Virus record (IMG/VR): IMGVR_UViG_3300014059_000004
DNA: 64,000 nucleotides
Source: a virus
Strand: one strand, 5' to 3'
Shown: piece after piece, positions 1 to 17,943 of the stretch
Layout: every line of letters starts with the position of its first letter
Position numbering within the stretch: position 1 is the stretch's first letter
Translations under genes and position numbers: made by a program
The notes under the pieces: generated by a model
Told to the model about the DNA's origin: nothing
Seen by the model: only the letters and a program-made list of their open reading frames with translations
The model's database searches: none

Positions 1-2478
1 AACTTCTTGCCATCAACTGTGATATCGAGGTGTGTACCGTACCTAGAGCTTGAATTTGTGTTTGACAGAGGATTCAACAAAGACGTAAAGAAACTTCAGA
101 CAGCTGGACTTCTGAAGTTCTTGATGGGCGGCGTTGACGTCGATCCTGGCTCACCAAATGATATCATGAGAAAAGCTCGTGCCAAGAAGAATGACCAAAG
201 CGTTCAGACTTCAGCCGGCATGGAACTGTTCACTTCTCCGCAGACGTTGATCAACATGAATCCAGTTGAACCTGGTGCTCGATACGTTGATGTTCTTGAT
301 CCTACTCGGCCATTTGCATCTATCGAGAGCGTCAGCATCAACGTTGCACCGACTGTTGGCATCATGTCTTACAAGCATGCGACTGTTGTGATGAAGCTTC
401 ATGATCGTTCTAGGTTGGCAGAAGTTGCTGATCTGATCCAACCAACTACGTACACAAGAACAACTTGCTGGCTTACATACGGTTGGCGCCATCCTTATGA
501 GCCGTCTGGCGATTCAGCATCTGAAACGTACGCTGATTTCATAAACAGAAACATGCTAGTCAAAGAAGCATACGGCGTGAAGAACGCTTCGTATTCTTTT
601 GATCAGACCGGTCAAGTTTCTATCACGATTGAACTTTACACCAAAGCTGTGTCAGAGCTTCGTGACATCAAAGTTAACGAAGGTCCAAACTCGTTCAAGA
701 AGCTATCAGAGAGAATCAATGCGCTCGCAGAGCAGATTGCAGAACTTCGCAAAAGCTACAAGCTAGATCCTCCGACGGGATTGAACAAAGAGATCAGGGG
801 ATTCATGATCCTTGATGCTGCTGAGGGCGGGCAATTTCCTGATATGAAACCAGATGAGATCATCGATTCAATCAAGGGTCTCGAGAAGATGCTTCAAGAC
901 ACTGGAAGGATTGCTAAGGGTGCGTCTGACCCGTTGATAGCCAAGCTGAAAGAGCTGTACAAACCAACTGGAAAGAAGAACGAGAACTTTGAATTCAAAG
1001 AGCAAGTCAAGACAATTGCTTCTAATTACGTGAAGCAAAAGTTCGATGCTCTTGTAGCCGGCCCAGATCCATTTCTGATCTTCGATGAGAAGAACAAGAC
1101 GATGAAGGAAGAGACCGGGATCGAAGATGATCATCCGTTCTTGAAAGAATTGTCATCGTACAACAAGGAAGGCGACATCTCGAAAGAGCTAAAGGAAGGA
1201 ACCAACTTCCGCAAAGCCGTGGTGTCTTTTGGTAAGCTGTTCATGGTGTTCATGGCACCAGCTCTGTTTTCGATACAGACAGTAGATGAATTTCAAATCT
1301 TGTTCTACCAGCTCAACGACAGGGCTGGAAAGGCTTCATCAACAAACATAGCTGAGTTCCCAATCGATCTACCAGTCTTCCTGAGACAGTACAAAGAAGT
1401 GATAGAGAAGAACGGTACTGAAGCTATGACAGTTGAGCAATTTGTGAAGCTAGCTGTCGATGCGCAGATCAACGATTCAAGAGCTATCGGTTACGGCTTT
1501 CGCTCTGCTGGCGTCTTCAAGCCCTGGGATCCTAAGAACAGAGATCCGGATTACAAAGACAAGAAGAAAGGAGAACAATATGAATCGTTGCTCTCTTCTG
1601 TTAACGGTCGCCGCGGCACGTTTCAGATGCCGCAGATCGAAGTTTACGTTGAGATGACGCACGAAAGGTACGACAGCAAGTCAGGAAAATCAGTACCGGT
1701 TGATCTACTGCAGTACTTCAATGATCCAGCTAATTCTGTGTCAGCGAAACCTGACGAGTTGGGCAAGACTTTCAGAAAGATCTCGAAGATTCACGTTTAC
1801 GACAAGACAGTCAATCCGTACAAGACTGCTGCGTCAATACTCAGATCAGACACGCCGAACGGTACAACGTTCATGGAAGTCGATCCAGATCCATGGGTTA
1901 AACGTCACACTGAAGATCGCACGCAGATCGTGAAGAACATCTTCAAAGATCTGTACGAGATTGCAACGAACACCGGTGATACTGGCATCAAGCTGACCGT
2001 TGGAACGATGACGACCGATGCTAACAACCAGAAGGTGAAGCACATGGTGTCAAAGCTTGTTCCAAGCATCATCTACGGCATGAATTCGTCTGCTGTCATG
2101 GAAGCTAGCCTCTCGACGAAGCAAGATTCAAACTTGACAGCAGCGCAGCTATTGGGTCTAAACTCAGGTAAGAAAGTTTCAGCAACTCCTGCCGGCGGCG
2201 GTGGTGGTGGTTTGCCGCTAAAAGTCATTCCCGCTGCCTTGACCCTTCGAACGCTTGGCTGCCCGATATTGAACTATTCGCAGTTGTTCTTCATAGATTT
2301 TAACACTGGAACAACGATCGATAACATCTACGGAATCTGTGGATTGACCCACACGCTGACGCCTGGAAAGTTTGAATCTAGCTTGACAATGGCGTTCTAC
2401 GATGCATATGGCAAGTACGAAGGTGCTCCGCAGATCGTGCAGAAGATGAAAGACGGCATTAAGACTACAGAAAAGTAA
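1..2478 (+). CDS. large hypothetical protein, probably 5'-truncated by the window edge (frame open to nt 1); contains a Gly6 tract
   Basis: 823-aa ORF in the track. No recognisable catalytic motifs. Codon usage is consistent with its neighbours. Confidence 0.4.
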   Translation, partial: NFLPSTVISRCVPYLELEFVFDRGFNKDVKKLQTAGLLKFLMGGVDVDPGSPNDIMRKARAKKNDQSVQTSAGMELFTSPQTLINMNPVEPGARYVDVLDPTRPFASIESVSINVAPTVGIMSYKHATVVMKLHDRSRLAEVADLIQPTTYTRTTCWLTYGWRHPYEPSGDSASETYADFINRNMLVKEAYGVKNASYSFDQTGQVSITIELYTKAVSELRDIKVNEGPNSFKKLSERINALAEQIAELRKSYKLDPPTGLNKEIRGFMILDAAEGGQFPDMKPDEIIDSIKGLEKMLQDTGRIAKGASDPLIAKLKELYKPTGKKNENFEFKEQVKTIASNYVKQKFDALVAGPDPFLIFDEKNKTMKEETGIEDDHPFLKELSSYNKEGDISKELKEGTNFRKAVVSFGKLFMVFMAPALFSIQTVDEFQILFYQLNDRAGKASSTNIAEFPIDLPVFLRQYKEVIEKNGTEAMTVEQFVKLAVDAQINDSRAIGYGFRSAGVFKPWDPKNRDPDYKDKKKGEQYESLLSSVNGRRGTFQMPQIEVYVEMTHERYDSKSGKSVPVDLLQYFNDPANSVSAKPDELGKTFRKISKIHVYDKTVNPYKTAASILRSDTPNGTTFMEVDPDPWVKRHTEDRTQIVKNIFKDLYEIATNTGDTGIKLTVGTMTTDANNQKVKHMVSKLVPSIIYGMNSSAVMEASLSTKQDSNLTAAQLLGLNSGKKVSATPAGGGGGGLPLKVIPAALTLRTLGCPILNYSQLFFIDFNTGTTIDNIYGICGLTHTLTPGKFESSLTMAFYDAYGKYEGAPQIVQKMKDGIKTTEK

Positions 2479-2508
2479 GTTGCACATCTTACTGCCAGAG
2501 CCATAAGA

Positions 2509-3729
2509 TTGTTCAATCTTATGTCAGAGCCATTTTGTATCGATGCGAAGCTGATGGGCACTGAACGCCATCTGCACGTTGATGATGGTTACAAGTGGGT
2601 GGAAGAAATTCCGACAACTACTTGGCACTTGTCAGGCGAACTTAAATATTCGTCAAACAGGTGTCTAGACACCGTTATGAGGCTAAATTCAAAAGAAGCA
2701 GATCTTCTGCCTCATGAGAAGTACTTGAAGATGATGCAAGTCGTAGCGCCAGATCATGGACCTCGACAGCTTCCATGGGTTCACCTGATGACGAGCAAAG
2801 AACACAGGAGCTACGTCAGAAAACTGATTAATGAAGCGGTGGATACCATAGACAACTATTCGAAAGATTATTACGTGTCAACGTGGGTCAACGAGACAGC
2901 AGTATTGGATGCTTTGAAACCAGCCATGGTGTCTAGAAAAAAGTATGCCGAGCTCAAGGCAACTGTGAAGAATAACGTTCACACCATTGAAAGCTTCGAA
3001 CCAAATCTGTCTGGGTACGCAGCACCTGTGCTTTACGATCGACTTGCTACGCGAACCGGTCGCTTGACAGTGAAATCAGGTCCGCAAATCTTGACGTTGA
3101 AGAGAGAGCACAGGGACTTGGTAGTTCCTTCTACACCCAACGGTAAGATCATGTACGTTGATTTTGCCGCGCTGGAAGCTAGAGTTCTTCTCTACGAGGC
3201 TGGTGGCCAATGTTCAGACGTAGATCTTTACGGGATGATAGCAAGAGACTTGTTTGGCGGCACTGTGTCTAGAGACGCTGTGAAGCTAGCTGTCATCTCT
3301 GAGCTGTACGGTTCTGGGAAGCACACGCTTGGAGAGACGTTGCAGATATCTGGTGATCCCCTTGATAGATTCATAGCAAAGATCAAGGGATTCTTCAAGA
3401 CAAACGATCTAAAAGCAAGGGTGAAGGATCAGTACGTGAAGTTGGGTTACATACGAAACAGGCACGGTCGCATGGTGAAGATCGATGAGCCAATCGACAG
3501 GATCTTTGTAAATTCGTACGCACAATCAACTGGCGTTGATGTTAGCCTCCTTGGATTCAACGAGCTGCTGAAGAGTCTTAAGCACACGAAGTGCCGCCCG
3601 CTGTTCGTTCTTCACGATGCTCTCATCATAGATGTTCCGGAAGAATCAGTTGACGAAGTGATGCAGATCGAATCTGTAAAAGTTCCTGGTTACGTTCAAA
3701 ACTTTAAGCTAAAGGTTCAGATGATGTGA
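2509..3729 (+). CDS. family A DNA polymerase-like protein, polymerase (fingers/palm) domain only
   Basis: Motif A-like 'VDFAALEARVL', motif B-like 'RDAVKLAVISELYGSG', motif C-like 'VLHDALIIDV', with Pol I-like spacing (A to B about 50 aa, B to C about 100 aa). No 3'-5' exonuclease motifs. Confidence 0.55.
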   Translation: MFNLMSEPFCIDAKLMGTERHLHVDDGYKWVEEIPTTTWHLSGELKYSSNRCLDTVMRLNSKEADLLPHEKYLKMMQVVAPDHGPRQLPWVHLMTSKEHRSYVRKLINEAVDTIDNYSKDYYVSTWVNETAVLDALKPAMVSRKKYAELKATVKNNVHTIESFEPNLSGYAAPVLYDRLATRTGRLTVKSGPQILTLKREHRDLVVPSTPNGKIMYVDFAALEARVLLYEAGGQCSDVDLYGMIARDLFGGTVSRDAVKLAVISELYGSGKHTLGETLQISGDPLDRFIAKIKGFFKTNDLKARVKDQYVKLGYIRNRHGRMVKIDEPIDRIFVNSYAQSTGVDVSLLGFNELLKSLKHTKCRPLFVLHDALIIDVPEESVDEVMQIESVKVPGYVQNFKLKVQMM

Positions 3730-3768
3730 ATAAGTAATTGAACATTCAAACCAACGTAGAGTGTAATC

Positions 3769-4398
3769 TTGATCAAGATGAAAGCTCAACTACCTAATCT
3801 TACTGCTGAAGAAATTGAACAAAATTGGCTTAGATATGTTTCGCTATTGGGAAAGATTGGTGATCGATCGACTGCAGCGGTTAATATGGCAGAAGCGCTA
3901 GGTGAACGACTGGCACTATGTCCAGCTTCTGCTAAGAAAGACTTTCATAGAGCGTGTGCTGGAGGCTTGGTAGATCACTCGCTAAGAGTCTTGACAAACG
4001 CTCTTACGTACAGCAAAGCTTTCGGTTGGAAGCTTCCTAAAGATTCGTTGATCTTGTCGTGCTTGTGCCATGATCTTGGAAAAGTAGGTGACGTGGACAA
4101 CGAATATTACATCGCTGCAGAAGAATGGCGTGCTCAGAAGCTCGGTGAGCTGTACACGTACAACTACGACATGCAGCACATGAGTAACCCAGACAGAAGC
4201 ATCTTCTTGCTGCAGCACTACGGCGTGAAGCTGACTCAAGATGAGCACCTAGCTATCAGGCTCAACGATGGTTACGTCGTTGAAGAGAATAAGACGTACT
4301 GCTTGAAAGAACCGCTTCTTGCTCACGTGGTCATGACTGCAGATTACGTGTCTACGATGGTAGAAAAAGGTATGTTCCCAAGTGAATTACATCTCTGA
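3769..4398 (+). CDS. HD-domain phosphohydrolase-like protein
   Basis: 'HRACAGG...H' and 'CLCHDLGK' His/HD signature typical of HD metal-dependent phosphohydrolases. Confidence 0.4.
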   Translation: MIKMKAQLPNLTAEEIEQNWLRYVSLLGKIGDRSTAAVNMAEALGERLALCPASAKKDFHRACAGGLVDHSLRVLTNALTYSKAFGWKLPKDSLILSCLCHDLGKVGDVDNEYYIAAEEWRAQKLGELYTYNYDMQHMSNPDRSIFLLQHYGVKLTQDEHLAIRLNDGYVVEENKTYCLKEPLLAHVVMTADYVSTMVEKGMFPSELHL

Positions 4399-4780
4399 TC
4401 TTACGAAAGGATCGATCTGCGCTGATAATTTTCGAGTGCATGTTGTATCTGACGTTGAGTTGCACATGTACGCGGCGTTGGCTATGGCATTTTCTGGCGA
4501 CAAGAAAGCAGTGGCGTGGGCTGTGAAGAACGGAGAGCTGCACTTGTACAGCGCACCAGAGCATGTTGCTTTTCAGCTTCCTTTTCCTATGTCTTACGAT
4601 CTAAGCGCCAAGTTCGCTCTAGAATGGCTAAGTTCGTTGAAAGAAGATCAGCTTGGCAAGCAGCCTGACATAGACGGTAGCACCAGCAAAGGTTGGTGCA
4701 TTGATAACGAGCGCACTCACGTTGAAGATTGGAAGCTTCTAGCGAAGATCAAGCCTGTGTGGCTTACGTACCATAAGTGA
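4382..4780 (+). CDS. hypothetical protein
   Basis: ORF overlapping the upstream stop (translational coupling). Confidence 0.3.
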   Translation: MNYISDLTKGSICADNFRVHVVSDVELHMYAALAMAFSGDKKAVAWAVKNGELHLYSAPEHVAFQLPFPMSYDLSAKFALEWLSSLKEDQLGKQPDIDGSTSKGWCIDNERTHVEDWKLLAKIKPVWLTYHK

Positions 4781-5138
4781 AGTTTCATGTATACTTATAG
4801 TGATGAGTAGAGAACTGCTCGTGAGGTACTTGAGGCTAGCGATAGATGAGTCTAGGAATGCAAACGTTCCTACACAGCTCATCGAACCTGATTCTGTGGA
4901 TGATAACGATAAGAGGAACTTGGACCAAGTTGACGAATTTTCTGGTGTTGGAGCCGTAGCCGGTTACACAGCACCTCTAGGAATGTCACCAGACAAGCTG
5001 GGCAGGAAGAAGAACAAGAAGCGTTAACTGAAGTGATCTGAGGATTTTGAACTTCCCCAGCATGGGAGTGTACTGTAACATTAATCGCATTCTGCGGTTT
5101 GAGCAGTACACAATTGCTCATAAGGAAAGAGGACAAAC

Positions 5139-6029
5139 ATGGCGATAAATCTAGAGGCAATTCGTAAGCGTATGGCAGAACTCAACGGGCAGAAGAAGAC
5201 GTCTTCTGTTCAACTTTGGAAGCCAACGCCGGGCGAGTATAAAATTCGTGCAGTTCCTTGGAAGAACTCCACAGATGACCTGCCTTTTCTTGAGAGGTGG
5301 TTCTACTACATCGGAAACGCACAAGGAATCCTGTCGCCGAAGCAGTTCGGTAAGCCGGATCCGATCGATGATCTGATCAGGAAGCTGTATTCTTCTGGAA
5401 AGCCAGAAGATCGTGCAATGGCAAAGCAGCTTCATCCGAAGATGAGAGCGTACGTTGCTGTCGTTGTTAGGGGTCAGGAAGACAAGGGCGTCCAGGTTTG
5501 GAGCATCGGCAAGGGAATCTACAATCGCTTGCTTGGATTCTTCTCTGACGAGGAGGTTGGAGATTTTCTTGATCCTCTCGTTGGATTTGACCTGAAGGTC
5601 ACGATCACCCAAGTGCCTGGAAAACAATACCCAGACACGACTGTTGATGCTGCTCGTAGGCCATCAAAGCTGATGGAAGATCCTGCACAGATCGAGAAGT
5701 TGCTGGCATCGACGCCGAACCTAGACGACATGTATCGTCAGAAGTCGAAGGAAGAGATCGAGAAGGTCTTGAACGATTGGCTGAACAGCGACGTTGCTGC
5801 ATCAGAAGATGGCACCGAGAAGGGTGCACCTGCTAATGATGCGCTCGATGCACTTGTCAACGAAGTTGCAACCGCAGCGAAGGCACAACCTGCTTCTGCA
5901 CCTGCAGAAGAGCCAAAGAAGCAGAGCAAGAAAAAGTCGACGGCATCTGACGATGACGATGATGCACCTAAGAAGAAGCAAACACTTGACGATGCATTCA
6001 ACGAGCTGATGGAGACATTACGTGGCTAA
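5139..6029 (+). CDS. ssDNA-binding protein, T4 gp32-like
   Basis: N-terminus 'MAINLEAIRKRMAELNGQKKTSS...' resembles the gp32 N-terminal region. Acidic C-terminal tail 'ASDDDDDAPKKK...DDAFNELMETL'. Strong RBS 'aaggaaagagga' upstream. Confidence 0.55.
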   Translation: MAINLEAIRKRMAELNGQKKTSSVQLWKPTPGEYKIRAVPWKNSTDDLPFLERWFYYIGNAQGILSPKQFGKPDPIDDLIRKLYSSGKPEDRAMAKQLHPKMRAYVAVVVRGQEDKGVQVWSIGKGIYNRLLGFFSDEEVGDFLDPLVGFDLKVTITQVPGKQYPDTTVDAARRPSKLMEDPAQIEKLLASTPNLDDMYRQKSKEEIEKVLNDWLNSDVAASEDGTEKGAPANDALDALVNEVATAAKAQPASAPAEEPKKQSKKKSTASDDDDDAPKKKQTLDDAFNELMETLRG

Positions 6030-7254
6030 ACCTGCCAAGGTTGTTGCGGGTGAAGAACCTGCAAAGAAGAAAGCTGCAAACAGCGACGTTGACGATCTTA
6101 CGACTGAGATCATCAAGTCCATCAACAAAGAGTTCGGTCAACGTGTAGCGTACAACCTATCAGTAGACGAAGCGCCCACCAACGTGAAGCGTTGGTTGGA
6201 CACTGGTTCTATTCAGCTGAATTACGCTATCAGAAATGCTGCTGGAGGTGGTTATCCTGAAGGTCGAGTAATCGAGATTTCTGGACCACCGTCGATAGGT
6301 AAATCACACCTAGCGTACCACGCTGCTGCCATCGTCCAAGGGATGGGTGGGCTGGTCGTTTACATTGACACTGAGAATGCAACGCCAGTTGAGAAGCTTA
6401 AGAACGTTGGCATCAACGTTGCAAAGAGGTTCGTGTACTGCGATGCACATTGCACTGAAGAAGTATTTTCGATCATCGAATCTACTATCTTGAAGGCAAA
6501 GCAAGTCATGGACAAGAACGTTCCAATTCTTGTCATATGGGACTCAGTGGCAGCAACATCACCGAAGGCAGAACTAGACGGTGATTACGATCAAAACACA
6601 GTTGGTTTGCAAGCCAGAGTCATCAGCAAAGGCATGAGAAAGATCACTGGTGTGATCGGTCAGAATAACGTGACCCTGCTATGCCTCAACCAACTTCGAA
6701 CCGCTATCGGTGTAATGCACGGAGATCCAGACATCACGCCGGGCGGAAAATCGATTCCTTACCACGCAACGCTCAGAATCAGGCTTTCTTCTGGAACGCA
6801 AGTTAAAGATAGCAGCGGAAATGTCATTGGCATCCATGTCATCATGACGACGAAGAAGAACAAAGTCGCACCTCCTTTTAGGAAGTACGAATTTGACGTC
6901 ATCTTTGGCAGGGGAATTTCTGAGCACACTTACATCTTTGACGAACTTCGATCACACTGTGAAAAGAACGCTGTGACGATCGATCACAAGGATAGCAAGG
7001 GAAACGTTGAAAAGCTTCAGATCACCATTGAAGGTACACAAGCCTGGAAGACGCTGAAAGTTTTCAGCACCGTGACTGGAGAAGTTCTCATCGAGAAGAA
7101 GTTCCAAAAGAACAATTTTGATGAGATAATGGCAGATCCAGTGTATAAGCCATTCATTGACAAAGCCATAGAAGAGACGTACACTGTTCACGGTGGTGAT
7201 CCAGATTCGTCCGGTGAATCACCTTCGGAAGAAGAGGTCCTCGATGAAAGTTGA
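6022..7254 (+). CDS. uvsX: UvsX/RecA-family recombinase
   Basis: Walker A 'GPPSIGKSH'. RecA-fold core 'LVIWDSVAAT' and 'LLCLNQLR'. Overall length and architecture of UvsX. Confidence 0.75.
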   Translation: MAKPAKVVAGEEPAKKKAANSDVDDLTTEIIKSINKEFGQRVAYNLSVDEAPTNVKRWLDTGSIQLNYAIRNAAGGGYPEGRVIEISGPPSIGKSHLAYHAAAIVQGMGGLVVYIDTENATPVEKLKNVGINVAKRFVYCDAHCTEEVFSIIESTILKAKQVMDKNVPILVIWDSVAATSPKAELDGDYDQNTVGLQARVISKGMRKITGVIGQNNVTLLCLNQLRTAIGVMHGDPDITPGGKSIPYHATLRIRLSSGTQVKDSSGNVIGIHVIMTTKKNKVAPPFRKYEFDVIFGRGISEHTYIFDELRSHCEKNAVTIDHKDSKGNVEKLQITIEGTQAWKTLKVFSTVTGEVLIEKKFQKNNFDEIMADPVYKPFIDKAIEETYTVHGGDPDSSGESPSEEEVLDES

Positions 7255-7765
7255 AGTTCTCTACGATGGTCCGGCTGCTCCGGAGTACAAGACGCCTGGA
7301 GCAGCTGGGTGCGATCTGTACGCTGACGAGCACCAGATCGTCCTAGCAGGAAAGACAACGATCATCTCTACGGGACTTCGGCTTGCGATCCCAGAGGGAT
7401 ACGAAGGTCAAGTCAGGTCAAGATCAGGTCTTGCAACGAAAGGCGTGTTCGTTCTGAACTCTCCTGGTTGCATTGATTGTTTTTCGGGTGATTCGAAGAT
7501 TAGTACTCTTAATGGAAAAATGAGCATACATGATCTTCGAATCAATGATCATATTCATTCATTCAATGAATCAACGCATGAAATAGAAAGTGATATTGTC
7601 ACTGCCATTGTTGATGTGGGCGTAAGAGATGTTATCATTTTTCGCCTAGATGATAATACTACAATGTCTTTGACACCTGGAACGCTTGTATATACTAGCG
7701 CCGGCTTGAAGAGAGCTGATCAATTGACGTCATCTGATGAAATACTGGTTGACCATGATAGTTAG
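7244..7765 (+). CDS. dut: dUTPase N-terminal extein fused to a split-intein N-fragment (IntN, nt 7478-7762)
   Basis: dUTPase motifs 'AAGCDLYA' and 'IPEGYEGQVRSRSGLA'. Motif 3 'GCID' is then interrupted by intein block A 'CFSGDSKISTL'. The ORF ends at a TAG stop. The ATG overlaps the uvsX stop. Confidence 0.7.
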   Translation: MKVEVLYDGPAAPEYKTPGAAGCDLYADEHQIVLAGKTTIISTGLRLAIPEGYEGQVRSRSGLATKGVFVLNSPGCIDCFSGDSKISTLNGKMSIHDLRINDHIHSFNESTHEIESDIVTAIVDVGVRDVIIFRLDDNTTMSLTPGTLVYTSAGLKRADQLTSSDEILVDHDS

Positions 7766-8791
7766 TTATCATGGTCAAATGTTTGATATGCAACGTTGAA
7801 AAACCCTATTCTATCGTTGAACATCTACGTTGTAAGCACAAATTGTCAGTTGAAGCTTATCGTAAACAATTTGCCAACGCAGAAGTGAAATCTGCGTTGG
7901 CAATTGAAGCCATTTCTAAGCAACATAAGCTTGTTTGGCAAGATGAATCATACAAGCAAAAGATGCGTGCGTCTCGACAACGCACGCATCGTACAGATGA
8001 ATTTCGTAAAAAACAATCTGATATCATTAAAAGTACATACGCCCATGGGCATAGAACTTGGAATGATGGTCTGACAAAAGATTCGGATGAAAGACTGTCT
8101 TTGATTGGAAAAAAGAATTCAGAACATTTGACAGGCAGAACAAAAGATACACATGATTATCTTAAAGGAAAAAGTGTTTTCATGAAGAAATTTCATGAGG
8201 ATAATCCCGGTGTCTTTGTTCATAATAGAATTAATTGGTCAGAAGAACGAATAAAAGAATGGAAGGAAAAAATAAGTTCATCAGTTTGTGAAGCTTACCA
8301 TGATGGCAGATGTGGCAGTTCATATCGATATATCAAAGGTTGGTTCGAAACGAAAGATTCTAAAAGAGAACATTATGATTCATCATGGGAACTTTCTTTG
8401 ATGGAATTCTTGGAATCATTGAATGTTACGTGGACAAAAGCACATCGAATTACGATTGATTATCAATTTAATGGTAATAGAAGATACATTCCTGATTTTT
8501 TGATATCTTGGCGTGGTAAAAATTTGCTGCTTGAATTGAAGGGTTATGTTTCATCACAGATTGAACTTGATGAAAAAACTCAAGCAGCTAAAATTTGGTC
8601 AGAGAAACAAAACATGTGTTTTTCACTGTGTCATAGCGTAAACGAAGCAAAAGATGTCATTTGTAAATTTATGACGGAGGCAAATGAAACTAGCAAAAAT
8701 TGTTAATATTGAGCGTTCTACTGATCGTTGTTATGATTTGACCGTTGAAAACAATCATAATTTTTTCTGTAATGATGTTCTGATTCATAAC
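7478..8791 (+). mobile_element. fractured-gene element: split intein (IntN/IntC) with an interposed homing-endonuclease gene inserted in dut motif 3
   Basis: Intein block A sits after dut 'GCID'. IntC ends 'HN' followed by 'C-DYRG'. Joining the exteins restores canonical 'GxIDxDYRG'. Confidence 0.65.
7771..8706 (+). CDS. free-standing homing endonuclease between split-intein halves (Zn-finger N-terminus, PD-(D/E)xK Vsr-like C-terminus)
   Basis: 'CLICNV...HLRCKH' zinc finger. C-terminal '[18 protein letters not shown]' PD-(D/E)xK signature. Different reading frame from both dut halves. Confidence 0.5.
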
Positions 8792-9079
8792 TGTGATTAC
8801 AGAGGCGTTGTGAAAGTCATATTGCACAACGTAGGGTCATCGACATTTACTGTCAACAAAGGAGATAGGATAGCCCAGCTTGTAATTACGCCGATTATTC
8901 GAGCGTCATTCTCGCACTCTCGTGAGCTGCCAGAAACCGCTCGTGGAGCCGGTGGGTTTGGTTCAACTGGTACGTTAACTGATCTGTACTTGGGTCTTTG
9001 CGTTGATTACAGTTCAACATCTCTACACAAGGTGTTAAATGGACGAAAAATCAACGCAAAGACCCATTTTGATATATGA
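8684..9079 (+). CDS. dut: split-intein C-fragment (IntC, 36 aa) fused to dUTPase C-terminal extein
   Basis: '[36 protein letters not shown]' closely resembles DnaE-type IntC (cf. '...VYDIGVERDHNF...ASN'). It is followed by +1 Cys and dUTPase motif 3 'DYRGVVKV' and motif 4/5 'VITPI...[10 protein letters not shown]'. Confidence 0.7.
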
Positions 9080-10022
9080 CGCAATGAACAGCTTCGTGCG
9101 TGCATATGCAGCGTTTCCCGCAATGAACGTCAATGGTGAAGCTATGGGAGGCTGCGTTGGATTCTTGAAGACGCTTCGCAAGCTTGTTAACGAATACTCA
9201 CCATCTGCTGTGTACATCGCTTGGGAAGGTGGTGGATCGCAGAGAAGAAGAGCTCTGTTCTCAGAATACAAGATGAATCGACGACCAGAGAAGTTGAATC
9301 GATTCTATGAAGATGAAATACCAGATTCTGAAGAGAATCGTCAGCATCAACTGATAGTGCTGCTTAACTTGCTGAAGCACGTGCCAGTTTGTCAACTTTA
9401 TGTCTCTGATTGCGAAGGCGATGATCTTGTAGCTTACCTTGCACGGCAGAAATTTAAGAACGTTGACAAGATCATCGCTTCGTCTGACAAGGATATGTAC
9501 CAGCTCCTTGACGAGCAGACGAAGATCTACAATTTTCACAAGAAGATCATTGTGACAGGTGATGACATCTTGAATGAGTACAAGATCAAGCCGGGAAACT
9601 TTGGTCTAGCGAAAGCGTTGTGCGGTGATCCGTCTGACAACATCCCTGGTTTGAAGGGATTTGGGTTCAAGACAGCGTCTCGCGTTCTTCCGTTCTTGCA
9701 GCTTCAAGATGACATTCTTGTCAGCGATGTGATCGATTACTGCAATTCACACTATGACGAGTCAAAGTTGTACCAACGTGTTGTCGAAAATCAGGATCTT
9801 TTGAAGAGAAATTGGCGCCTCGTTCATCTAGACGGCAGCATGCTGTCCGCTGCTCAGGCTTCCAAAGTAGATCAATTGATCAGTACATACGTCCCACGTA
9901 GTGATAGGATCAGCTTTACTCGAGGGCTTATGAAGGAAGGCATCAATGATTTTGATGTTGCTGATTTCTTCATGACCTTCAACTGCATCGAGAACGTGGA
10001 AAATAGGACTAAAGAAAAATGA
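9039..10022 (+). CDS. 5'-3' exonuclease / RNase H (FEN family, T4 rnh-like)
   Basis: N-terminal '[14 protein letters not shown]' and '[10 protein letters not shown]...[14 protein letters not shown]', then '[11 protein letters not shown]'. The acidic clusters are typical of the FEN/PIN nuclease fold. A helix-hairpin-helix region '[18 protein letters not shown]' follows. Confidence 0.7.
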
Positions 10023-10807
10023 ACGATGACATCAAGCCGACAACGCAAGCTTCATTCGCACAGTATGGAAAGTCCTTCCAAGAAAAGCTGTGCCAAGCGC
10101 TGCTCGTTGACAAGCAGTTTGCAGAGCAGATGCTGGAGGTGTTTAACGTAACGTACCTAGAACCAAAGTACTTGGTGTTCCTTGCTGAACGTTATTTTTC
10201 GTACGCTCAGAAGTACAAGGTGTTTCCAACCATGCAGCTGCTCATCACCATCATCAGGGATGAGCTGAAGATTGGCACTGACGTTGTCATCAGAGATCAG
10301 ATAGTAGATTACTTGCAACGCATGCGTTCTAATCCTGACGTTGGAGATCTTCAGTACGTCAAGGAAAAGGCGCTCGATTTCTGCAGGAAGCAAGCTCTGC
10401 GCAGCGCGCTTGAAGAAGCAGTTGATCAGATCCAGGCTGAGAAGTACGAATCGATCGTTGAGGGTATCAAGAAGGCTGTGATGGTTGGAACTGCTCCGCA
10501 GTTGGGTCATGATTTCTTTGCTGATTATGAGAGTCGCTTCACTAAGTTGTCAAGGAATGCAATCGCCACAGGTCTTCCAGAGCTAGACAAGAAAGATATC
10601 TTGAATGGCGGCTTGGGGTCCGGCGAGCTAGGTTGCGTTGTTGGTGCGACTGGAACAGGAAAGTGTGTTCATCGTAATACTTACATTCAGGTAAAATATA
10701 CTGGGGTGAGAATCGATGGAAAACTATACAAGCCTTGGGATCGAATTGCAACAAAACGCGGAATCATCTTTGCTAGAGATGTCATCGAATCAGACGAGCT
10801 TGAGTGA
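10019..10807 (+). CDS. replicative helicase (DnaB/gp41-like) N-terminal part ending in Walker A, fused to a short intein N-fragment (nt 10664-10804)
   Basis: Walker A 'GATGTGK' is immediately followed by 'CVHRNTYIQV...' (intein block A). A stop follows after 47 intein residues. Confidence 0.55.
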   Translation: MNDDIKPTTQASFAQYGKSFQEKLCQALLVDKQFAEQMLEVFNVTYLEPKYLVFLAERYFSYAQKYKVFPTMQLLITIIRDELKIGTDVVIRDQIVDYLQRMRSNPDVGDLQYVKEKALDFCRKQALRSALEEAVDQIQAEKYESIVEGIKKAVMVGTAPQLGHDFFADYESRFTKLSRNAIATGLPELDKKDILNGGLGSGELGCVVGATGTGKCVHRNTYIQVKYTGVRIDGKLYKPWDRIATKRGIIFARDVIESDELE

Positions 10808-12318
10808 AAAATTCAAGTGTCAACATTGTTATCAACAATACAACAACCAGTCTGGTTTGATTACGCATATTCGACGCAAACATTCAACAACATTCACAGA
10901 TTACAAGTTGAAATTTGCGCATCTTTACAAAGTTGAAAAAAGAGAGAAAAAACTTAGTCTAAATGAACTAGCTAGACGTAAACGTGATGAAAAAGCTATT
11001 GATGATGGACTTAAAGTTTTGAAGTGCGAAATTTGCAATTATGAATCTTACTATTCTTTGATATCGCACATCGTAAGAAAACACGGTGTTGACATGAAGG
11101 AATATCGATCAAAGTATCCCTCAACTGTCGTGCAGCAAGTTACATCAGACATTAGGGAGAAAAATAAGAAGAATGCAACATTGCATCTTTCAGATCCGAT
11201 CAAGAAAGCAAACTTTCTAAAACGAAGATCTTTTCCCTCTGAGATGAAACATTGGATCAATAAGGGATTTTCATCAGATGAAGCAAAGAAAAAAGTTGCT
11301 GAATTTCAACAAAAGATTGCGCTTAAAGGCAATAATGAAAAAACGAAGGCAAAGCAGTCAATTAGAAATTCTGGTCAAAATAATCCAATGTCATTGACGT
11401 CAATTTCGAAACGCATGGGTGTTTCGAAGAATGAAGCAAGCAAATTGACGCCGTGTTATGGAAGATCAGGGTTTAAACACCCGATGTTTGGAAAAAAACA
11501 CAGCGTTGAAGCTTTGAACAAAATTGGTCGGCACATTAATCATACTGGTCGTTCGAAAATTGAACATGAAATGTCTGATTTGATCATTGCATTGTACGGT
11601 GGTCTAAAGAATGTTGGAGTCAACGGTTGGTGTTGTGATTACGTTAATCATAATCACCAAATCATAGTTGAATTTTTTGGTGATTATTGGCATCACAACC
11701 CAGAAAAATATGATAGAAATTTTGTCAACAACTTTACTAAACGTTCATCTGAAGAAGTTTGGTCACGTGATGCACGAAAATTGAATGAACTTAGAGAGAG
11801 TGGTTATAACGTTGTTGTGATCTGGGAATCTGATTGGCGAAACAAAAAAGAAGTCTGTTTGAACAGGATAAAAGATGCTTTCAATAGAACATTGTGAAGT
11901 TGTTGAAGTTGTTAAAATTGGTGATCTGTTTGATGATATTGGATTTGATGATAAATCTACTGTTGATGACTCTGGTGATTCATTCATTCCAAATGAATGG
12001 TCGATAGAAGTTAGATCACTTGACACTTTTTATCCTATAGATGGTTTTCGTTGGACAAAACCTGAACAGCAAGTGAAGTTGACATATGGCAAAGAATCTT
12101 CTTTGCAATGCTCACCAGAACACATTGTTTTGAAGTATTCTTCTACAGAAACTCAATGGACAAAAGTCAATGATCTATCGCCGGGTGATGACATTGTCAC
12201 TGTTAATGGCATTTGTACGATTGATTCGATTGATAATCTCGAGGAAATTGATCGTCTTTGCGATTTTCAAGTATCAATTGCGCACTCTTATTATGCTGAC
12301 GGTGTGTTGTCACATAAC
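10664..12318 (+). mobile_element. fractured-gene element: atypically split intein (47-aa N-fragment) plus homing-endonuclease gene inside the helicase P-loop
   Basis: The three pieces are in three different frames. The extein junction reconstitutes 'GTGK-S'. Confidence 0.5.
10716..11897 (+). CDS. free-standing homing endonuclease (C2H2 zinc fingers plus Vsr-like PD-(D/E)xK nuclease) between intein fragments
   Basis: 'CQHCYQQY...HIRRKH' and 'CEICNYES...HIVRKH' C2H2 fingers. C-terminal 'IIVEFFGDYWHHNP...VVVIWESDW' Vsr-like motif. Confidence 0.55.
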   Translation: MENYTSLGIELQQNAESSLLEMSSNQTSLSEKFKCQHCYQQYNNQSGLITHIRRKHSTTFTDYKLKFAHLYKVEKREKKLSLNELARRKRDEKAIDDGLKVLKCEICNYESYYSLISHIVRKHGVDMKEYRSKYPSTVVQQVTSDIREKNKKNATLHLSDPIKKANFLKRRSFPSEMKHWINKGFSSDEAKKKVAEFQQKIALKGNNEKTKAKQSIRNSGQNNPMSLTSISKRMGVSKNEASKLTPCYGRSGFKHPMFGKKHSVEALNKIGRHINHTGRSKIEHEMSDLIIALYGGLKNVGVNGWCCDYVNHNHQIIVEFFGDYWHHNPEKYDRNFVNNFTKRSSEEVWSRDARKLNELRESGYNVVVIWESDWRNKKEVCLNRIKDAFNRTL

Positions 12319-13116
12319 TCTCATTTCTTGACGTTCTTGGGTGCAATGGCGCTGAGGAACAACGTTGATGTTCTTCACTACACGTTCGAGCTATCAGAGA
12401 CTCAAGTTGGTATCAGGTACGATTCTAACTTGTGTGACATTGATTCGAATGCTGTCATTGACAGCAAGGATCGTATTCTTACTAAGTACGCAGAGCAAAA
12501 GCTGGGACGCTTGATCATCAAGTACTTTCCGACGAACACGGCTAGCATCTACACGCTTCGAAGTCACATCGAGCGCCTCGGAACGAAGGGTTTCAGGCCA
12601 GGATTGATCATCATCGACTATGCTGACATCATGAGATCAACTCGTCAGTTCGATTCTTTGAGACACGAGCTTAAGCTCGTTTACGAAGAACTAAGAGGAA
12701 TGGCTGGCGAGCTAGGAATCCCAGTGTGGACAGCGAGCCAGAGCAACAAAGAGGGAGCGACAAGCGAGATCATCGACATGGGAAACATGTCTGAAGCTTA
12801 CGGCAAGGCGATGATCGCTGACGTGATCGTCAGCATCTCTAGGCGCGCTCACGAGAAGTCAACGGGTCAAGGTCGATTGTACGTTGCAAAGAATCGTGCA
12901 GGGCGCGATGGTCTTGTTTACCCGTTGCACATTGACACCTCAAAGAGCAACTTTGAGATCTTGGGTGGACCGGGTTCTTTGGACGTCGCCATGAAGGAGA
13001 ACGAATCTGACATTAAGAAAGTTCTTCGTTCAAAGTGGAACGAGATGAGAAATGATCCAATCATCGGCGAAAATCTAAAAAGAGGAAGCGATTCTAGCGA
13101 TGACACGGGTTCTTGA
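11875..13116 (+). CDS. intein C-piece (148 aa, contains block B and terminal 'SHN') fused to helicase C-terminal RecA-like domain
   Basis: 'LTYGKESSLQCSPEHIVL' (block B-like)...'YYADGVLSHN|S', then helicase motifs 'LIIIDYADIM' and 'GIPVWTASQSNKEG'. Confidence 0.55.
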   Translation: MLSIEHCEVVEVVKIGDLFDDIGFDDKSTVDDSGDSFIPNEWSIEVRSLDTFYPIDGFRWTKPEQQVKLTYGKESSLQCSPEHIVLKYSSTETQWTKVNDLSPGDDIVTVNGICTIDSIDNLEEIDRLCDFQVSIAHSYYADGVLSHNSHFLTFLGAMALRNNVDVLHYTFELSETQVGIRYDSNLCDIDSNAVIDSKDRILTKYAEQKLGRLIIKYFPTNTASIYTLRSHIERLGTKGFRPGLIIIDYADIMRSTRQFDSLRHELKLVYEELRGMAGELGIPVWTASQSNKEGATSEIIDMGNMSEAYGKAMIADVIVSISRRAHEKSTGQGRLYVAKNRAGRDGLVYPLHIDTSKSNFEILGGPGSLDVAMKENESDIKKVLRSKWNEMRNDPIIGENLKRGSDSSDDTGS

Positions 13117-13176
13117 AGTGCGTATAGTTATGAAGCACCCCTTAGCGAACTGCTGTAGAGTGGAAAGAAAGCAAGA

Positions 13177-16100
13177 ATGAAGACATTTACGTACCAAGAA
13201 GCTCGTGATGCATCGGTTGACTATTTTTCTGGTGACACTCTAGCTGCTGATGTTTTTGTGTCCAAATATGCGTTGCGTGATTCAAATGATCAAGTTCTAG
13301 AGAGCACACCAGAAGCCATGCATCGTCGCCTGGCGAAGGAGTTCGCTAGGATAGAGTTGAACTACAAAAACTCTATTTCGTTCGAAGAAATCATGGAGTA
13401 TTTCAGCTCTTGGAAGATCGTGCCTCAAGGATCGCCGATGTCTGCGATTGGAAACACGAAGCAGATCCAGTCTCTGTCAAATTGCTTTGTCATTGAATCG
13501 CCGTACGATTCTTACGGCGGAATCATGAAGACCGACCAAGAGCAAGCTCAGATCATGAAGCGCCGCGGTGGTGTTGGATTCGACATCTCGTCAATCAGAC
13601 CAAAGGGATTGGTCACAACTAACGCTGCTCGTACGACCGATGGCATCGGTGTTTTCATGGAGCGCTTCAGCAACACTTGCAGGGAAGTCGCGCAAGGCGG
13701 TCGCCGTGGTGCTTTGATGATGACAATCTCTGTTCATCACCCAGAGATTCGCACGTTCATCAACATCAAGAAGAACGTTGAAAAAGTTACAGGCGCAAAC
13801 ATCTCGATCAGGTTGACTGATGAGTTCATGCGATCAGTGAAGGCTAGCGAGAAGTTCCAGCTAAGGTTCCCAGTTGAAGCAAATGCACAGCATACGATCA
13901 AAGAAGATGTCGACGCTGGTGAACTGTGGAATGAGATCATCGAGGCTGCTCATGCATCAGCTGAACCCGGTTTGCTATTTTGGGACAACGTTGTCAACAA
14001 CGGCCCAGCAGATGCATATCCCGGTTTCAAGTCTATCTCTACGAATCCTTGCTCTGAGATTGCTCTTTGCGCTTACGATTCGTGCAGATTGCTGCTTCTT
14101 AACGTTTCAAAGTTCGTAGAGAATCCTTTCACTGACAGAGCAAACTTCAACATCAAAGAGTTCAAGAGAGCTGCGTACGTTGCTCAACGCTTGATGGACG
14201 ACTTGGTTGATCTTGAGCTCGAAGCCGTCGATAGGATCATCGACAAGATCAACTCAGATCCAGAACCAGACGACGTAAAGAAGAACGAGCTAGATCTTTG
14301 GTTGAAGATCAGGGAAAAAGGTGCCTCGGGCCGTCGCACTGGTTTGGGAATCACTGGTCTTGGTGATGCCATTGCGTACGTTGGGTTGAAGTACGGATCA
14401 AGGGAATCTATCGATTTCACGGAAGATCTGTATAGAATGTTGGCTCTTTCTGCGTACCGTTCGTCAGTTGACATGGCGGCAGAACGTGGAGCATTTCCTG
14501 CGTTTTCTCACAACGTTGAAGCTGGTCATCCGTTCATTGAAAAGATCTTGGCACATGATGATGAGCTAAGGGCTGCATACAAGGTTCACGGTCGTCGTAA
14601 CATTGCCTTGACAACAACTGCACCCGCTGGATCAGTTTCAATCCTGACTCAAACAACGTCTGGTTGCGAACCTGTTTTTGCAGTTAGCTACAAGCGCAAG
14701 AAGAAGATCAATTCGAACGACGTCACGACCACAGCCAACTTTGTTGATGATCTTGGAGATCGTTGGCAAGAGTATACTGTCTACCATCATGGATTGAAGA
14801 TGTGGATGGATGTGACTGGAAAGACAGAGGCTGATATCGATGAATCGCCTTACAAGGGTTCTTCTAGTTCTGAGATCGATTGGCATGCTCGTGTTGACCT
14901 TCAAGCCGCAGCCCAAAGATGGATCTGCCATGCAATTTCCAGCACTGTCAACTTGCCATCAGATACGTCAGTTGAGACAGTTAAAAACATCTACATGCGA
15001 GGTTGGGAATCTGGGTGCAAGGGAATCACAGTGTATCGTGATGGTTGCAGAGCAGGCGTTCTATCGACAGAAGAGAAAAAGCCAAGTATTCAAGGAGCGT
15101 CAACCGATGGCTTGAAAGCCCTTCTTGACATTGTCACTAAGAACGTTAGCAGCATTCCATCAGCTGATTTGTACAAAAAATTGATTGAAGAAGAGCTCAC
15201 GAGGAGAGAGCCGACTCAACCAGAAAAGGTCGTCGAAGTTCATGCTCCGAAGCGTCCAAAAGAGCTAGAGTGTGACATCCATCGAGTCAACATCAAAGGC
15301 GAACAGTATCTTGTCTTCGTCGGATTGCTGAACGGCGTTCCATACGAAGTCTTTGCCGGTCTGTCAGAACACGTTGAAGTGCCAAAGAAAGTTAAGAAGG
15401 GAATCTTGATCAAGAATGGCAAGAAAGACGGCGTTGCAACGTACAATCTAAAGATTCCGGTGGGAGATGATGATTTTGTGACGTTCAAAGACGTTGTTAA
15501 CTTGTTTGACAACCCAACTTACGGTTCGTTCACCAGAACGTTGTCTCTAACGTTGAGGCATGGCATCCCGCTTCAGTACATCGTCGAGCAGCTTCGCAAA
15601 GACAAGCACAGCGACATGATGTCATTTTCAACTGTCATTGCTAGAGTCTTGAGCAAGGGTTACATCGTCGACGGAACGAAAGCAACGCAAGAAAAGCAGT
15701 GCTCAAGTTGCGGTTCTGATCAGCTAGCGTACATGGAAGGTTGCCAGACGTGCATGAACTGCGGAAGTAGCAAGTGTTCCTTATACTTAACTCCAAGACG
15801 AAAGGTTGATGACGTGAAAATCAAGATCACACCGCAGATGCTGAGGCAGCTTGTTAATGAAGAAGTTCTGAACGTGAAGCGCAAGGGAACTTTGAAGGAA
15901 GCCTTTGGACCATACGATGCTACTGGCGAGTATGATGACAAGGAATATGGCATGCAGCCGTGGAACTTTGAAGAGTCACACAGGGAATTGTTTGCGCAAG
16001 CGCTTGAACCGGTTATCAATGAATTCATGGAGTCTTTGGCTGAGATCGCTGAAAGAGCTTCACCACCAGATGCTAACATGTCTGCGCAAGATATTGGTAG

Positions 16101-17187: not shown

Positions 17188-17943
17188 ATGTGGTATGTTT
17201 ATGTGTACAAAGATCCGATCGATTCTGTTGTGTTTTATGTAGGAAAAGGTCAAGGAAATCGTCATCGTTCACATCTGTTTAGAGCTAAAACTTGGATTGA
17301 TAAAGGAAAGCCAAACAAATATGGGTCGATCAATATTCACTTGATGAGAAAAATATCACAACTATGGGATAACAAGCTTGAGCCAATCGTTGAAATTCTC
17401 GAAAATTATTCTGTTGAAGAAGATGCATATTCAAGAGAGATTGTTGAAATTAACAATCATAGATCCGAACGATTGTGCAATATTGCAAATGGTGGTGAAG
17501 GTCTAAGAGCATGCGCAAAAGAAACAATAGAGAAAATTAAAGCTAGTCGAAAAATTTGGCTTGAATCTGAAAAAGGACAGTCTTGGAGAAAGACTATGTC
17601 AGAAAGTAGAAAAGGTGTAGGAAATCCTGCTTATGGTAAAAAAGAAGCAGAAGATCATAAAATAGCTAGAATGAAGAATCTGCTTTCAAAAACTCGTTGG
17701 AATAAAGGTCTACGAGGTGATCCACGTAGCGCAGGTCATCCAAAAGGTGTTTCTACGTGGAATGCTAAAGTATGTCGAATTACTAATCAGATTACTGGTC
17801 AGATCGTAGAAGCTGAATCAAAGACAAAATTGGCAAAGAAACTTAAAGAACAACATGTTGAATTGTCAATGTCATCTTTGTCTCGAGCTCTAGCAACTGG
17901 TAAGGCTGTTAAAAATTGGAAAGTTGAATATGTCACCAAATGA
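17188..17943 (+). CDS. free-standing GIY-YIG homing endonuclease
   Basis: 'YVYVYKDPIDSVVFYVGKGQGNRHRSH' GIY-YIG motif. Basic C-terminal DNA-binding region. Confidence 0.6.
   Translation: MWYVYVYKDPIDSVVFYVGKGQGNRHRSHLFRAKTWIDKGKPNKYGSINIHLMRKISQLWDNKLEPIVEILENYSVEEDAYSREIVEINNHRSERLCNIANGGEGLRACAKETIEKIKASRKIWLESEKGQSWRKTMSESRKGVGNPAYGKKEAEDHKIARMKNLLSKTRWNKGLRGDPRSAGHPKGVSTWNAKVCRITNQITGQIVEAESKTKLAKKLKEQHVELSMSSLSRALATGKAVKNWKVEYVTK

Follow-up and report, generated by a model that had tools for sequence, protein, structure and literature searches.

How can a phage make a working replicative helicase from a gene that is broken within its Walker A P-loop, the stretch in which the enzyme's most conserved residues lie? 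The locus that raises this question is part of a 64,000-nucleotide stretch of viral DNA (IMG/VR record IMGVR_UViG_3300014059_000004), which was analysed whole and is called the window here. In it, three open reading frames (ORFs) on the same (+) strand, at 10019-10807 (ORF1), 10716-11897 (ORF2) and 11875-13116 (ORF3), occupy all three frames. We read them as a fractured DnaB/gp41-like phage helicase gene with an atypically split, probably trans-splicing class 1 intein that is broken by the gene of a Vsr-like homing endonuclease, and we put the probability of this reading at roughly 85%. The case is built on the anatomy of the locus, on homology and a predicted fold, on selection, on an exact empty-site allele, and on decay of the endonuclease gene in relatives that are still split. 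A first-pass annotation, made from the letters and the ORFs of the window, had proposed the core of this reading, and its coordinates, lengths and quoted motifs all agree with the ORF list and the translations.

A helicase gene fractured within its P-loop

ORF1 encodes 262 aa. Its first 215 residues (10019..10663, +) are the helicase's N-terminal portion, the N-extein, which ends in the Walker A motif GATGTGK; what follows is an N-terminal intein fragment (IntN; 10664..10807, +) of 47 codons, Cys1 to Glu47, plus a TGA. The end of the protein reads ...GELGCVVGATGTGK / CVHRNTYIQVKYTGVRIDGKLYKPWDRIATKRGIIFARDVIESDELE (a slash marks a splice junction throughout), and its stop codon stands 47 residues past the Walker A lysine. 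ORF3 encodes 413 aa and opens with a C-terminal intein fragment (IntC; 11875..12318, +) of 148 codons. Its N-terminus, MLSIEHCEVV..., belongs to a head strand and helix alpha1 (MLSIEHCEVVEVVKIGDLF), ...LQCSPEHIVL... appears further on, and ...YYADGVLSHN is reached at residue 148, followed by S-HFLTFLGAM..., just as the first-pass annotation had described a 148-aa intein remainder ending in VLSHN. The remainder of ORF3 is the C-extein (12319..13116, +), which comprises helicase residues 216-480 and the stop codon and opens with Ser+1, the Walker A serine (SHFLTFLG...). This part matches Pfam DnaB_C (E = 4.5e-14), and homologues of ORF1 are annotated as replicative DNA helicase by JGI. ORF2, 393 aa from its first ATG, lies between the two and encodes a homing endonuclease; it overlaps ORF1 by 92 nt and ORF3 by 23 nt. 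The fracture in the Walker A P-loop that had been proposed can be placed precisely: the insertion point is between Lys215 and the P-loop serine, and this serine is the +1 residue.

The boundaries of the element are given by alleles that do not carry it. When residues 1-215 of ORF1 and 149-413 of ORF3 are joined in silico, the 480-aa product is identical at 480/480 residues to an uninterrupted helicase (P0272), with the N-extein equal to its residues 1-215 and the C-extein to its residues 216-480. P0272 is encoded on 14 other metagenome contigs beside the same neighbours, namely genes for a RecA-like protein, a dUTPase, a 5'-3' exonuclease and ribonucleotide reductase, and the 90%-identity cluster of ORF1 also holds 480-aa proteins, labelled replicative DNA helicase by one source. 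BLAST alignments between the window and four empty loci (L089-L092) stop at window position 10666 and restart at 12324; the cassette of IntN, endonuclease gene and IntC (10664..12318, +) is therefore a clean insertion. The identity of the in-silico spliced protein to P0272 thus fixes the boundaries and establishes a presence/absence polymorphism of a 1,655-bp element, which is missing from near-identical empty-site alleles. The junction in the empty allele of L089 reads ...GGAACTGGCAAG / AGTCACTTTCTT..., and the peptide across the predicted spliced junction is GTGK-SHFLTFLGAMALR. Against another protein, P0256, the spliced product aligns without a gap across the P-loop junction, at 59% identity.

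Three ORFs that overlap slightly (by 92 nt and 23 nt) are what one might see if sequencing or assembly errors had frameshifted a single contiguous intein with a nested endonuclease domain, and the first-pass annotation had named such frameshifts as what would undo its reading. The split, however, recurs across many independent contigs and lineages, including loci from which the endonuclease has been deleted. The exact ORF1 protein is found on at least 23 independently assembled metagenome contigs (from ENA lake metagenomes and Logan assemblies), all with the same three-ORF layout, and 82 diverged homologues terminate at the same residue. ORF2 and ORF3 each have an ATG and a Shine-Dalgarno-like sequence of their own: GGGGTGAGA (10703..10711, +), read from the sequence, lies 4 nt 5' of the first ATG of ORF2, and AGGA (11865..11868, +) lies 6 nt 5' of the ORF3 ATG, within the 3' end of the endonuclease gene. 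Moreover, the endonuclease belongs to a free-standing family (zinc finger, NUMOD3, Vsr-like), rather than being a LAGLIDADG or HNH domain embedded in the intein at the canonical site, and relatives without it still hold two separate ORFs. An artefact, to which we would assign a vanishingly small probability, is already refuted by the independent contigs.

A different worry is that the helicase gene is a pseudogene in the course of being lost, with replication served by another helicase. It draws some support from the surroundings, since homing endonucleases crowd the window and several of its replication genes are interrupted. Yet both extein halves are under strong purifying selection (nonsynonymous divergence, pN, of 0.002 vs synonymous divergence, pS, of 0.075, measured against locus L008), their protein sequence is that of the uninterrupted allele, and the fractured state is retained in lineages down to ~50% identity. 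We regard loss of the gene as extremely unlikely.

Two fragments of one intein fold

Cys1 follows directly on GATGTGK and is a cysteine in 82 of the 82 homologues that have a 47-aa tail. Block A is the only intein motif in IntN, as had been proposed, and the others are all in IntC: block B (S80-P-E-H83), the block F Asp130 (RLCD130) and block G (SH147-N148/S149). In an alignment of 14 family members the block B histidine, the block F aspartate and block G are invariant. IntC alone matches the split intein VidaL (PDB 6vgv; phmmer E = 1.6e-5), and a profile built from the 14 family members matches VidaL at 1.9e-15, gp41-1 at 2e-13, NrdJ-1 at 1.2e-8, CatC at 1.9e-8 and PolB16 at 1e-6. Alignment to known atypical split inteins, which the first-pass annotation had suggested, thus finds VidaL, CatC and PolB16. 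With hhalign the match to VidaL has a probability of 98%, at 25% identity over 110 columns. A word-indexed protein search with the IntC part gave no match; the family members came from an exhaustive HMMER search.

An AlphaFold2 model of IntN (47 residues) fused to IntC (148 residues) has a mean pLDDT of 83.2 and a pTM of 0.79. In a Foldseek search of the PDB this model finds VidaL first (TM 0.84, normalised on VidaL), and the top 48 matches are all inteins or other HINT-fold domains (BIL, hedgehog). We are confident, as far as a model allows, that IntN and IntC together make up a complete HINT domain. IntN residues 7-17 and IntC residues 4-14 are modelled as long strands; strand beta2 falls within IntN and, as in VidaL, helix alpha1 (IGDLFDD) falls within IntC. 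In the nomenclature that separates splits after beta2 (S1) from splits after alpha1 (S2; PMC13014065), the model puts the split at S1, at the tip of an inserted hairpin where the endonuclease gene sits. We also considered a complete intein within ORF3 that would start from its own Cys7 (MLSIEH-C-EVV..), and rejected it: relatives have E, K, V, S or R in place of this cysteine, the segment aligns with the strand that precedes alpha1, and it is the empty allele that sets the N-terminal junction.

A homing endonuclease that the split outlives

The product of ORF2 carries two C2H2-type zinc fingers at its N-terminus, a NUMOD3 motif and, at its C-terminus, a Vsr-like nuclease (..VEFFGDYWHHNP..VVIWESDW..), which bears out the C2H2/Vsr-like homing endonuclease that had been proposed for the second frame. 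In Pfam, NUMOD3 scores above its cut-off, there are C2H2/BED zinc-finger matches, and a MTES_1575/DUF559 nuclease domain lies below the cut-offs; PHROGs was also searched. Among solved structures ORF2 best matches the Vsr mismatch endonuclease, in an alignment that pairs the D, FWH, RD and V.VWE motifs. A shorter endonuclease at the same position in L004 is 57% identical, and against L008 both ORF2 (pN/pS 0.14) and IntC (pN/pS 0.18) show purifying selection. The start of the endonuclease gene is uncertain, from 10716 to ~10800, and gene callers on identical contigs picked the equivalents of 10746, 10779 or 10857. With any of the alternative starts up to 10800, the gene would still overlap IntN or abut it; in L004, a spacer of 19 nt separates the IntN stop from the called start. 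A group I intron carrying the endonuclease was considered and dismissed, as an Rfam scan of 9500-13500, judged by E-value, gave one chance snoRNA match and ORF2 fills the whole gap. A promoter and terminator scan of 9900-13300 returned counts no higher than in shuffles.

The order of N-part, endonuclease and C-part on one strand is found also in L004, L008, L010, L011, L013, L093 and L095, and at least 12 cluster representatives (at 50% identity) begin with ML.IE like ORF3. We inspected about a dozen distinct split lineages for the state of the endonuclease. Nine have an intact gene (the window, L004, L008, L010, L011, L013, L014, L093 and L095) and three have none: L009, L094 and L096, with spacers of 51, 131 and 273 nt, respectively. 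Remnants can be recognised in each. The L094 spacer encodes an endonuclease fragment, ..VEVIWESEWRHDHEACMKRIK (..VIWESEWR..CMKRIK); the L096 spacer encodes a zinc finger, LSCYLCEMRSNNLNSHITRMH (LSCYLCE..HITRMH), and ..VVIWECDWK..; and in L009 the 3' end of the endonuclease (..ERIKK) can be made out by eye, retained together with the Shine-Dalgarno sequence of IntC, ..AGAGGATTAAAAA ATG. The IntN stop and the IntC start are intact in all three, and the Shine-Dalgarno sequence was read in L009 only. If a split intein persists after its endonuclease has decayed, it must still be performing its function, and we consider these loci the strongest indirect evidence for trans-splicing.

How the helicase may be restored

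In the mechanism that we propose, one transcript would yield three proteins, the N-piece, the endonuclease and the C-piece. IntN and IntC would associate and thereby complete the HINT fold, an N-S acyl shift would take place at Cys1, and the N-extein would pass to Ser+1. Cyclisation of Asn148 and an O-N shift would then restore GATGTGK-SHFL and with it an active helicase of 480 residues. The endonuclease, for its part, would cut helicase alleles that lack the intein, in co-infecting phages and close to the P-loop codons, and repair of the cut alleles would copy the whole 1.66-kb cassette in. Fragment association, the splicing chemistry, and the activity and target of the endonuclease are what we infer from the evidence above.

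Several observations weigh against this reading. The threonine of block B, a non-canonical position here, is replaced by serine in IntC, and by alanine in relatives and in VidaL. The AlphaFold2 input alignment held 14 sequences, 3 of them with the IntN part, and the confidence of the model in the segment past the IntN core could be over-optimistic. The nuclease matches of ORF2 are weak, both to Vsr (E = 0.013) and to MTES_1575 (26.6 bits against a cut-off of 38.2 bits). Finally, if the ATG at 10716 is the start of the endonuclease, the gene overlaps IntN by 92 nt, unlike the fractured genes of Dassa et al., in which non-coding spacers of 27-51 nt were found (PMC2677866).

Another possibility, in keeping with the block B substitution, is that the intein halves no longer splice and have become non-covalent interaction domains that hold the helicase pieces together. 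For a gene fragmented by a mobile element such a rescue has a precedent in a ribonucleotide reductase broken by a homing endonuclease, the pieces of which are held non-covalently according to PMC3045599. In the helicase, though, the break is within the Walker A loop, between its lysine and its serine, and an ATPase with 195 foreign residues at that point is unlikely to work. The nucleophiles and the His-Asn pair are, moreover, invariant across the family, which would be unexpected were the chemistry dispensable, and VidaL, the closest relative with a solved structure, is an efficient trans-splicer (PMC13014065). Halves that merely hold the pieces together seem to us an unlikely solution, and trans-splicing remains the reading that we prefer.

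The 47-residue IntN and its extension

The first 17 residues of IntN are the block A core, strands beta1-beta2; the other 30 (residues 18-47, IDGKLYKPWDRIATKRGIIFARDVIESDELE; 10715..10804, +) form a conserved extension. Among the best 120 homologues of ORF1, 94 continue GK/C; in 82 of these the stop codon comes after exactly 47 intein residues, in 7 it comes after 48 and in 2 after 49. Over the 82 sequences, mean column entropy is lower in residues 18-47 (1.19 bits) than in residues 1-17 (1.74 bits); T30, R32, G33 and D44 are invariant, and P24, W25 and D39 are 99% conserved. In a set of 8 distinct DNA sequences the extension has a pN/pS of 0.38 at a near-saturated pS of 0.62, with a pN of 0.23 compared with 0.35 for residues 1-17. 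As silent sites are close to saturation and pN is low, the constraint must be on the protein and not on the DNA. The extension is modelled as three short beta strands and a short helix, with block pLDDT values of 77-96.

One could argue that only the first ~16-17 residues of IntN function, as in VidaL, which operates with 16. ORF2 opens at 10716, exactly past IntN residue 17 and in another frame, and in a contiguous relative (P0009, locus L012) the intein reads GK/CVDPRECVSIRYRTGDEVILEDIELGKLF and lacks the extra segment. Against this stand the better conservation of residues 18-47 with their invariant positions, the constraint at the level of the protein, and the confidence with which the segment is modelled. 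The segment is also kept in L004, where the endonuclease gene starts 3' of the IntN stop, and in L009, L094 and L096, where that gene is deleted, and the contiguous intein of P0003 (locus L088) has it as well: this intein reads GK/CVFSRTIIPIRYEQIKINGQSYKPWDKINTQRGTIYAKDIKEVERSLTEEDIEIGDLF and carries the same extension unbroken. A functional IntN that ends at residue 17 is therefore, in our view, very unlikely. Read-through of imported DNA as the source of residues 18-47 was rejected on the same conservation, constraint and retention where no endonuclease overlaps. We favour an IntN that is functional as a whole over its 47 residues, to judge by these comparisons of sequences.

What the extension does is harder to say, and our best guess is that it serves docking of the fragments. 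That it is specific to split forms is a view weakened by contiguous inteins with insertions of ~40 residues at the same place, in P0003, P0034 and P0052. Of these, P0034 and P0052, which are distant contiguous P-loop helicase inteins, have a different ~40-residue insertion, and three others of that kind (P0054, P0076 and P0036) have none. It is possible, though we are more doubtful than persuaded, that the extension and the extra head of IntC form a distinct docking mini-domain at the split site. If the extension does drive fragment recognition, or gate splicing in the P-loop, these inteins would constitute a sub-class that is structurally new among atypically split inteins, and such a mini-domain would supply an orthogonal association mechanism of practical use.

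Exchange of the cassette in the population

Silent differences from the empty allele cluster on both sides of the insertion. Upstream, the window has ACT GGC where the empty allele has ACA GGA, which puts two differences in the last three codons of the N-extein. Downstream, AGT CAC TTT CTT (window 12319-12330) stands against TCT CAT TTC TTG (L089 4646-4657); these first 12 nt of the C-extein hold 6 differences, all synonymous and including a switch between the serine codon families (AGT to TCT), where the overall difference is ~4%. In our interpretation, the cluster is either a co-conversion tract or a set of changes that protect the target of the endonuclease, and it may mark the recognition site of that enzyme.

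More distant intein-free alleles (GVGK-SHFL...) are dispersed among relatives, and they match ORF1 as closely as the intein-bearing ones do. Between the window and L008, identity is 87-94% over 10400-12300 and 96-100% in the flanking helicase sequence, with a pS of 0.25-0.28 in the cassette vs 0.075 in the extein; between the window and L003, the dip in identity is limited to the endonuclease gene. Taken together, the scattered empty alleles, the mosaic divergence and the clustered silent differences are population data that, read at the level of sequence, point clearly to exchange of the cassette.

The same helicase is interrupted at further points in some relatives. A distant relative (L014 / L015, ~2338-5664) has its helicase in three pieces: it combines the atypical P-loop split, a Vsr-like endonuclease and a different IntN tail of ~62 aa with a second intein that is canonically split at ..VSQVNR/C, with ~36 nt between the halves and no endonuclease. 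P0003 (L088), P0006 and P0007 have a second, contiguous intein at ..WTA/C...VVKN/SQSNKEG, in which the insert is long in P0003 (with a weak match to Pfam HNH_3) and P0006 and shorter in P0007.

Comparison with known split inteins

The natural atypically split inteins that have been characterised have IntN fragments of 25 aa (AceL-TerL), 37 aa (GOS-TerL), 16 aa (VidaL) and 15 aa (PolB16 OarG; PMC13014065, PMC10189870). The first-pass annotation had likened the locus to atypical split inteins with very short N-fragments. The class was right, with VidaL as the nearest characterised member; in length, an IntN of 47 residues lies above the range of 15-37 described for natural atypical inteins (PMC13014065).

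VidaL (PDB 6vgv/6vgw) is the best match in both sequence and fold, and splices in trans with a half-life of ~1 min (PMC13014065). Its IntN is CLPKEAVVQIRLTKKG and its IntC reads MIEEKKVTVQELRELY...GIVSHN/S (supplement of PMC10264447). Common to both inteins are Cys1, Ser+1 and a C-terminal ..G(I/V)(V/L)SHN/S; the VidaL IntN and the first 16 residues here (CVHRNTYIQVKYTGVR) follow the same pattern, the split in both is after strand beta2 (S1), and both have replaced the block B threonine. They differ in that identity is ~25% over 110 aligned columns, that the IntN here reaches 47 aa through the 30-residue extension, with about the first 17 residues corresponding to the VidaL IntN, and that the IntC here has ~8 extra N-terminal residues. 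Published constructs flank VidaL with ESG/SGK, compared with GTGK/SHF here, and judging from these flanks VidaL probably has a different insertion point or host.

The fractured genes reported by Dassa et al. in 2009 are the closest parallel in architecture, with an enzyme N-part fused to IntN, a free-standing endonuclease (Vsr-like or GIY-YIG) and IntC fused to the C-part, all on one strand and mainly in phages. One terminase intein among them is split after motif N1, with a 122-aa IntC that holds all other motifs, and the same study reported a new family of Vsr-like endonucleases (PMC2677866). At that terminase locus (later GOS-TerL / Cat), CatC is matched by our family profile, as given above. 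In AceL-TerL and GOS-TerL, however, the host is a terminase and not a helicase, the IntN has 25-37 aa, and the split is at S2, after helix alpha1, whereas here it is at S1, after beta2, with an insertion (PMC13014065). A possible overlap between the endonuclease ORF and IntN also sets the window apart from the Dassa et al. loci and their spacers.

Among split inteins in helicases, gp41-1 to gp41-9 likewise fracture a phage DnaB/gp41-type helicase with an intervening endonuclease, and gp41-1 is the second-best profile match. These inteins are canonically split, with an IntN of 88-105 aa and an IntC of 33-54 aa; gp41-1 to gp41-7 are inserted at position 356 of P-SSM2 gp41, and gp41-8 and gp41-9 each at another point (PMC2677866). 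The same target as in the window is used by bacterial DnaB inteins inserted at site b, such as DnaBi1 of Mycobacterium smegmatis, where the Mg2+-coordinating P-loop serine is the +1 nucleophile (PMC6195587). The window has the GxxGxGK/S of site b, and the intein-free alleles read GVGK-SHFL. DnaBi1, though, belongs to a cellular genome and is a contiguous mini-intein of class 3, unsplit and without an endonuclease gene. PolB16 OarG shares a natural S1 split, a long IntC (168 aa) and a match to the family profile (PMC10189870), and differs in being cysteine-less (Ser1/Ser+1), in its host, a PolB polymerase, and in its 15-aa IntN. As for the endonuclease, the C-terminal core of ORF2, D..E.FG.YWH..RD..V..W, preceded by NUMOD3, resembles Vsr-like homing endonucleases, and by description it can be set beside I-Bth0305I, which PMC3239194 presents as the characterised representative of that family. 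ORF2 adds two N-terminal C2H2-type zinc fingers, and its similarity to Vsr is weak.

A megablast search of positions 9000-14000 against GenBank phages gave no match, and tblastn with ORF3 against the same phages matched the helicase part only (best 41.7% identity, in Microcystis phage Mel-JY01); no cultured phage with the intein was found. Full-text literature searches found no description of this family of split-intein helicases. The fractured gene, the atypical split and the P-loop insertion site are each already described in the literature, and the locus is the first example that we found, in the literature searched, of a helicase P-loop that holds an atypically split intein. It belongs to a large, diverse and apparently undescribed metagenomic family, with more than 90 sequence clusters of N-pieces. 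The suggestion that it would be a new natural example thus holds for a new member; the locus is not isolated, and its kind is already in the literature.

Natural atypically split inteins are rare, and they are valued because a short IntN can be synthesised for protein semisynthesis and labelling. The family offers many natural variants for screening, with a 47-aa IntN at the long end for peptide synthesis. Public data hold the element in several states: as an empty site, as a fractured gene with its endonuclease, as a split with endonuclease remnants, and as contiguous inteins with or without the hairpin. These states in related phages make the 'gene-breaking' model of split-intein origin directly testable on natural intermediates, and at an atypical split site.

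Other interrupted genes in the window

The host of the locus is probably an uncultured large freshwater phage; contigs with the same proteins reach 313 kb, and the window also encodes a RecA-like protein, the Pol III alpha subunit, ribonucleotide reductase, thymidine kinase, dCMP deaminase and superoxide dismutase. Homing endonucleases have invaded its replication module heavily, and at least three genes in the window are fractured. A second such gene (7193-9079) directly precedes the helicase region, and consists of the N-part of a dUTPase with an IntN of canonical length (7193-7765), an endonuclease of 311 aa that combines a zinc finger with a TnsA-like nuclease domain (7771-8706), and a short IntC (..VLIHN/C) with the C-part of the dUTPase (8684-9079). 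The dUTPase cassette (7477-8794, 1,318 bp) is missing from the near-identical L001, L008 and L089-L092, which carry an intact dUTPase. The third (36130-41183) is the Pol III alpha gene (DnaE), with the PHP domain and an IntN at 36130-36924, a 319-aa ORF at 36941-37900 that has no Pfam match and may be an endonuclease, and an IntC with the remainder of Pol III alpha at 37851-41183.

Two free-standing GIY-YIG endonuclease genes lie at 17188-17943 and 34270-34998, one of them also with NUMOD3. They sit in islands of low GC content (~0.39-0.40, vs ~0.47 elsewhere), and the helicase and dUTPase cassettes are likewise low. At 50185-51504, an ORF of 439 aa has a Cys-rich region and a TnsA-like nuclease domain fused in frame to dCMP deaminase, with no stop between them; this is probably an endonuclease gene that abuts the deaminase gene, the deaminase start being likely near residue 305.

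Identity to otherwise identical contigs is mosaic at window positions 9000-9900, the gene of the 5'-3' exonuclease, and at 13400-14800; the exonuclease gene has 80-90% identity and adjoins blocks of 100%. On near-identical contigs, ribonucleotide reductase products of 969, 1008 and 1126 aa were called. The mosaic identity and the varying reductase calls indicate frequent recombination in the population.

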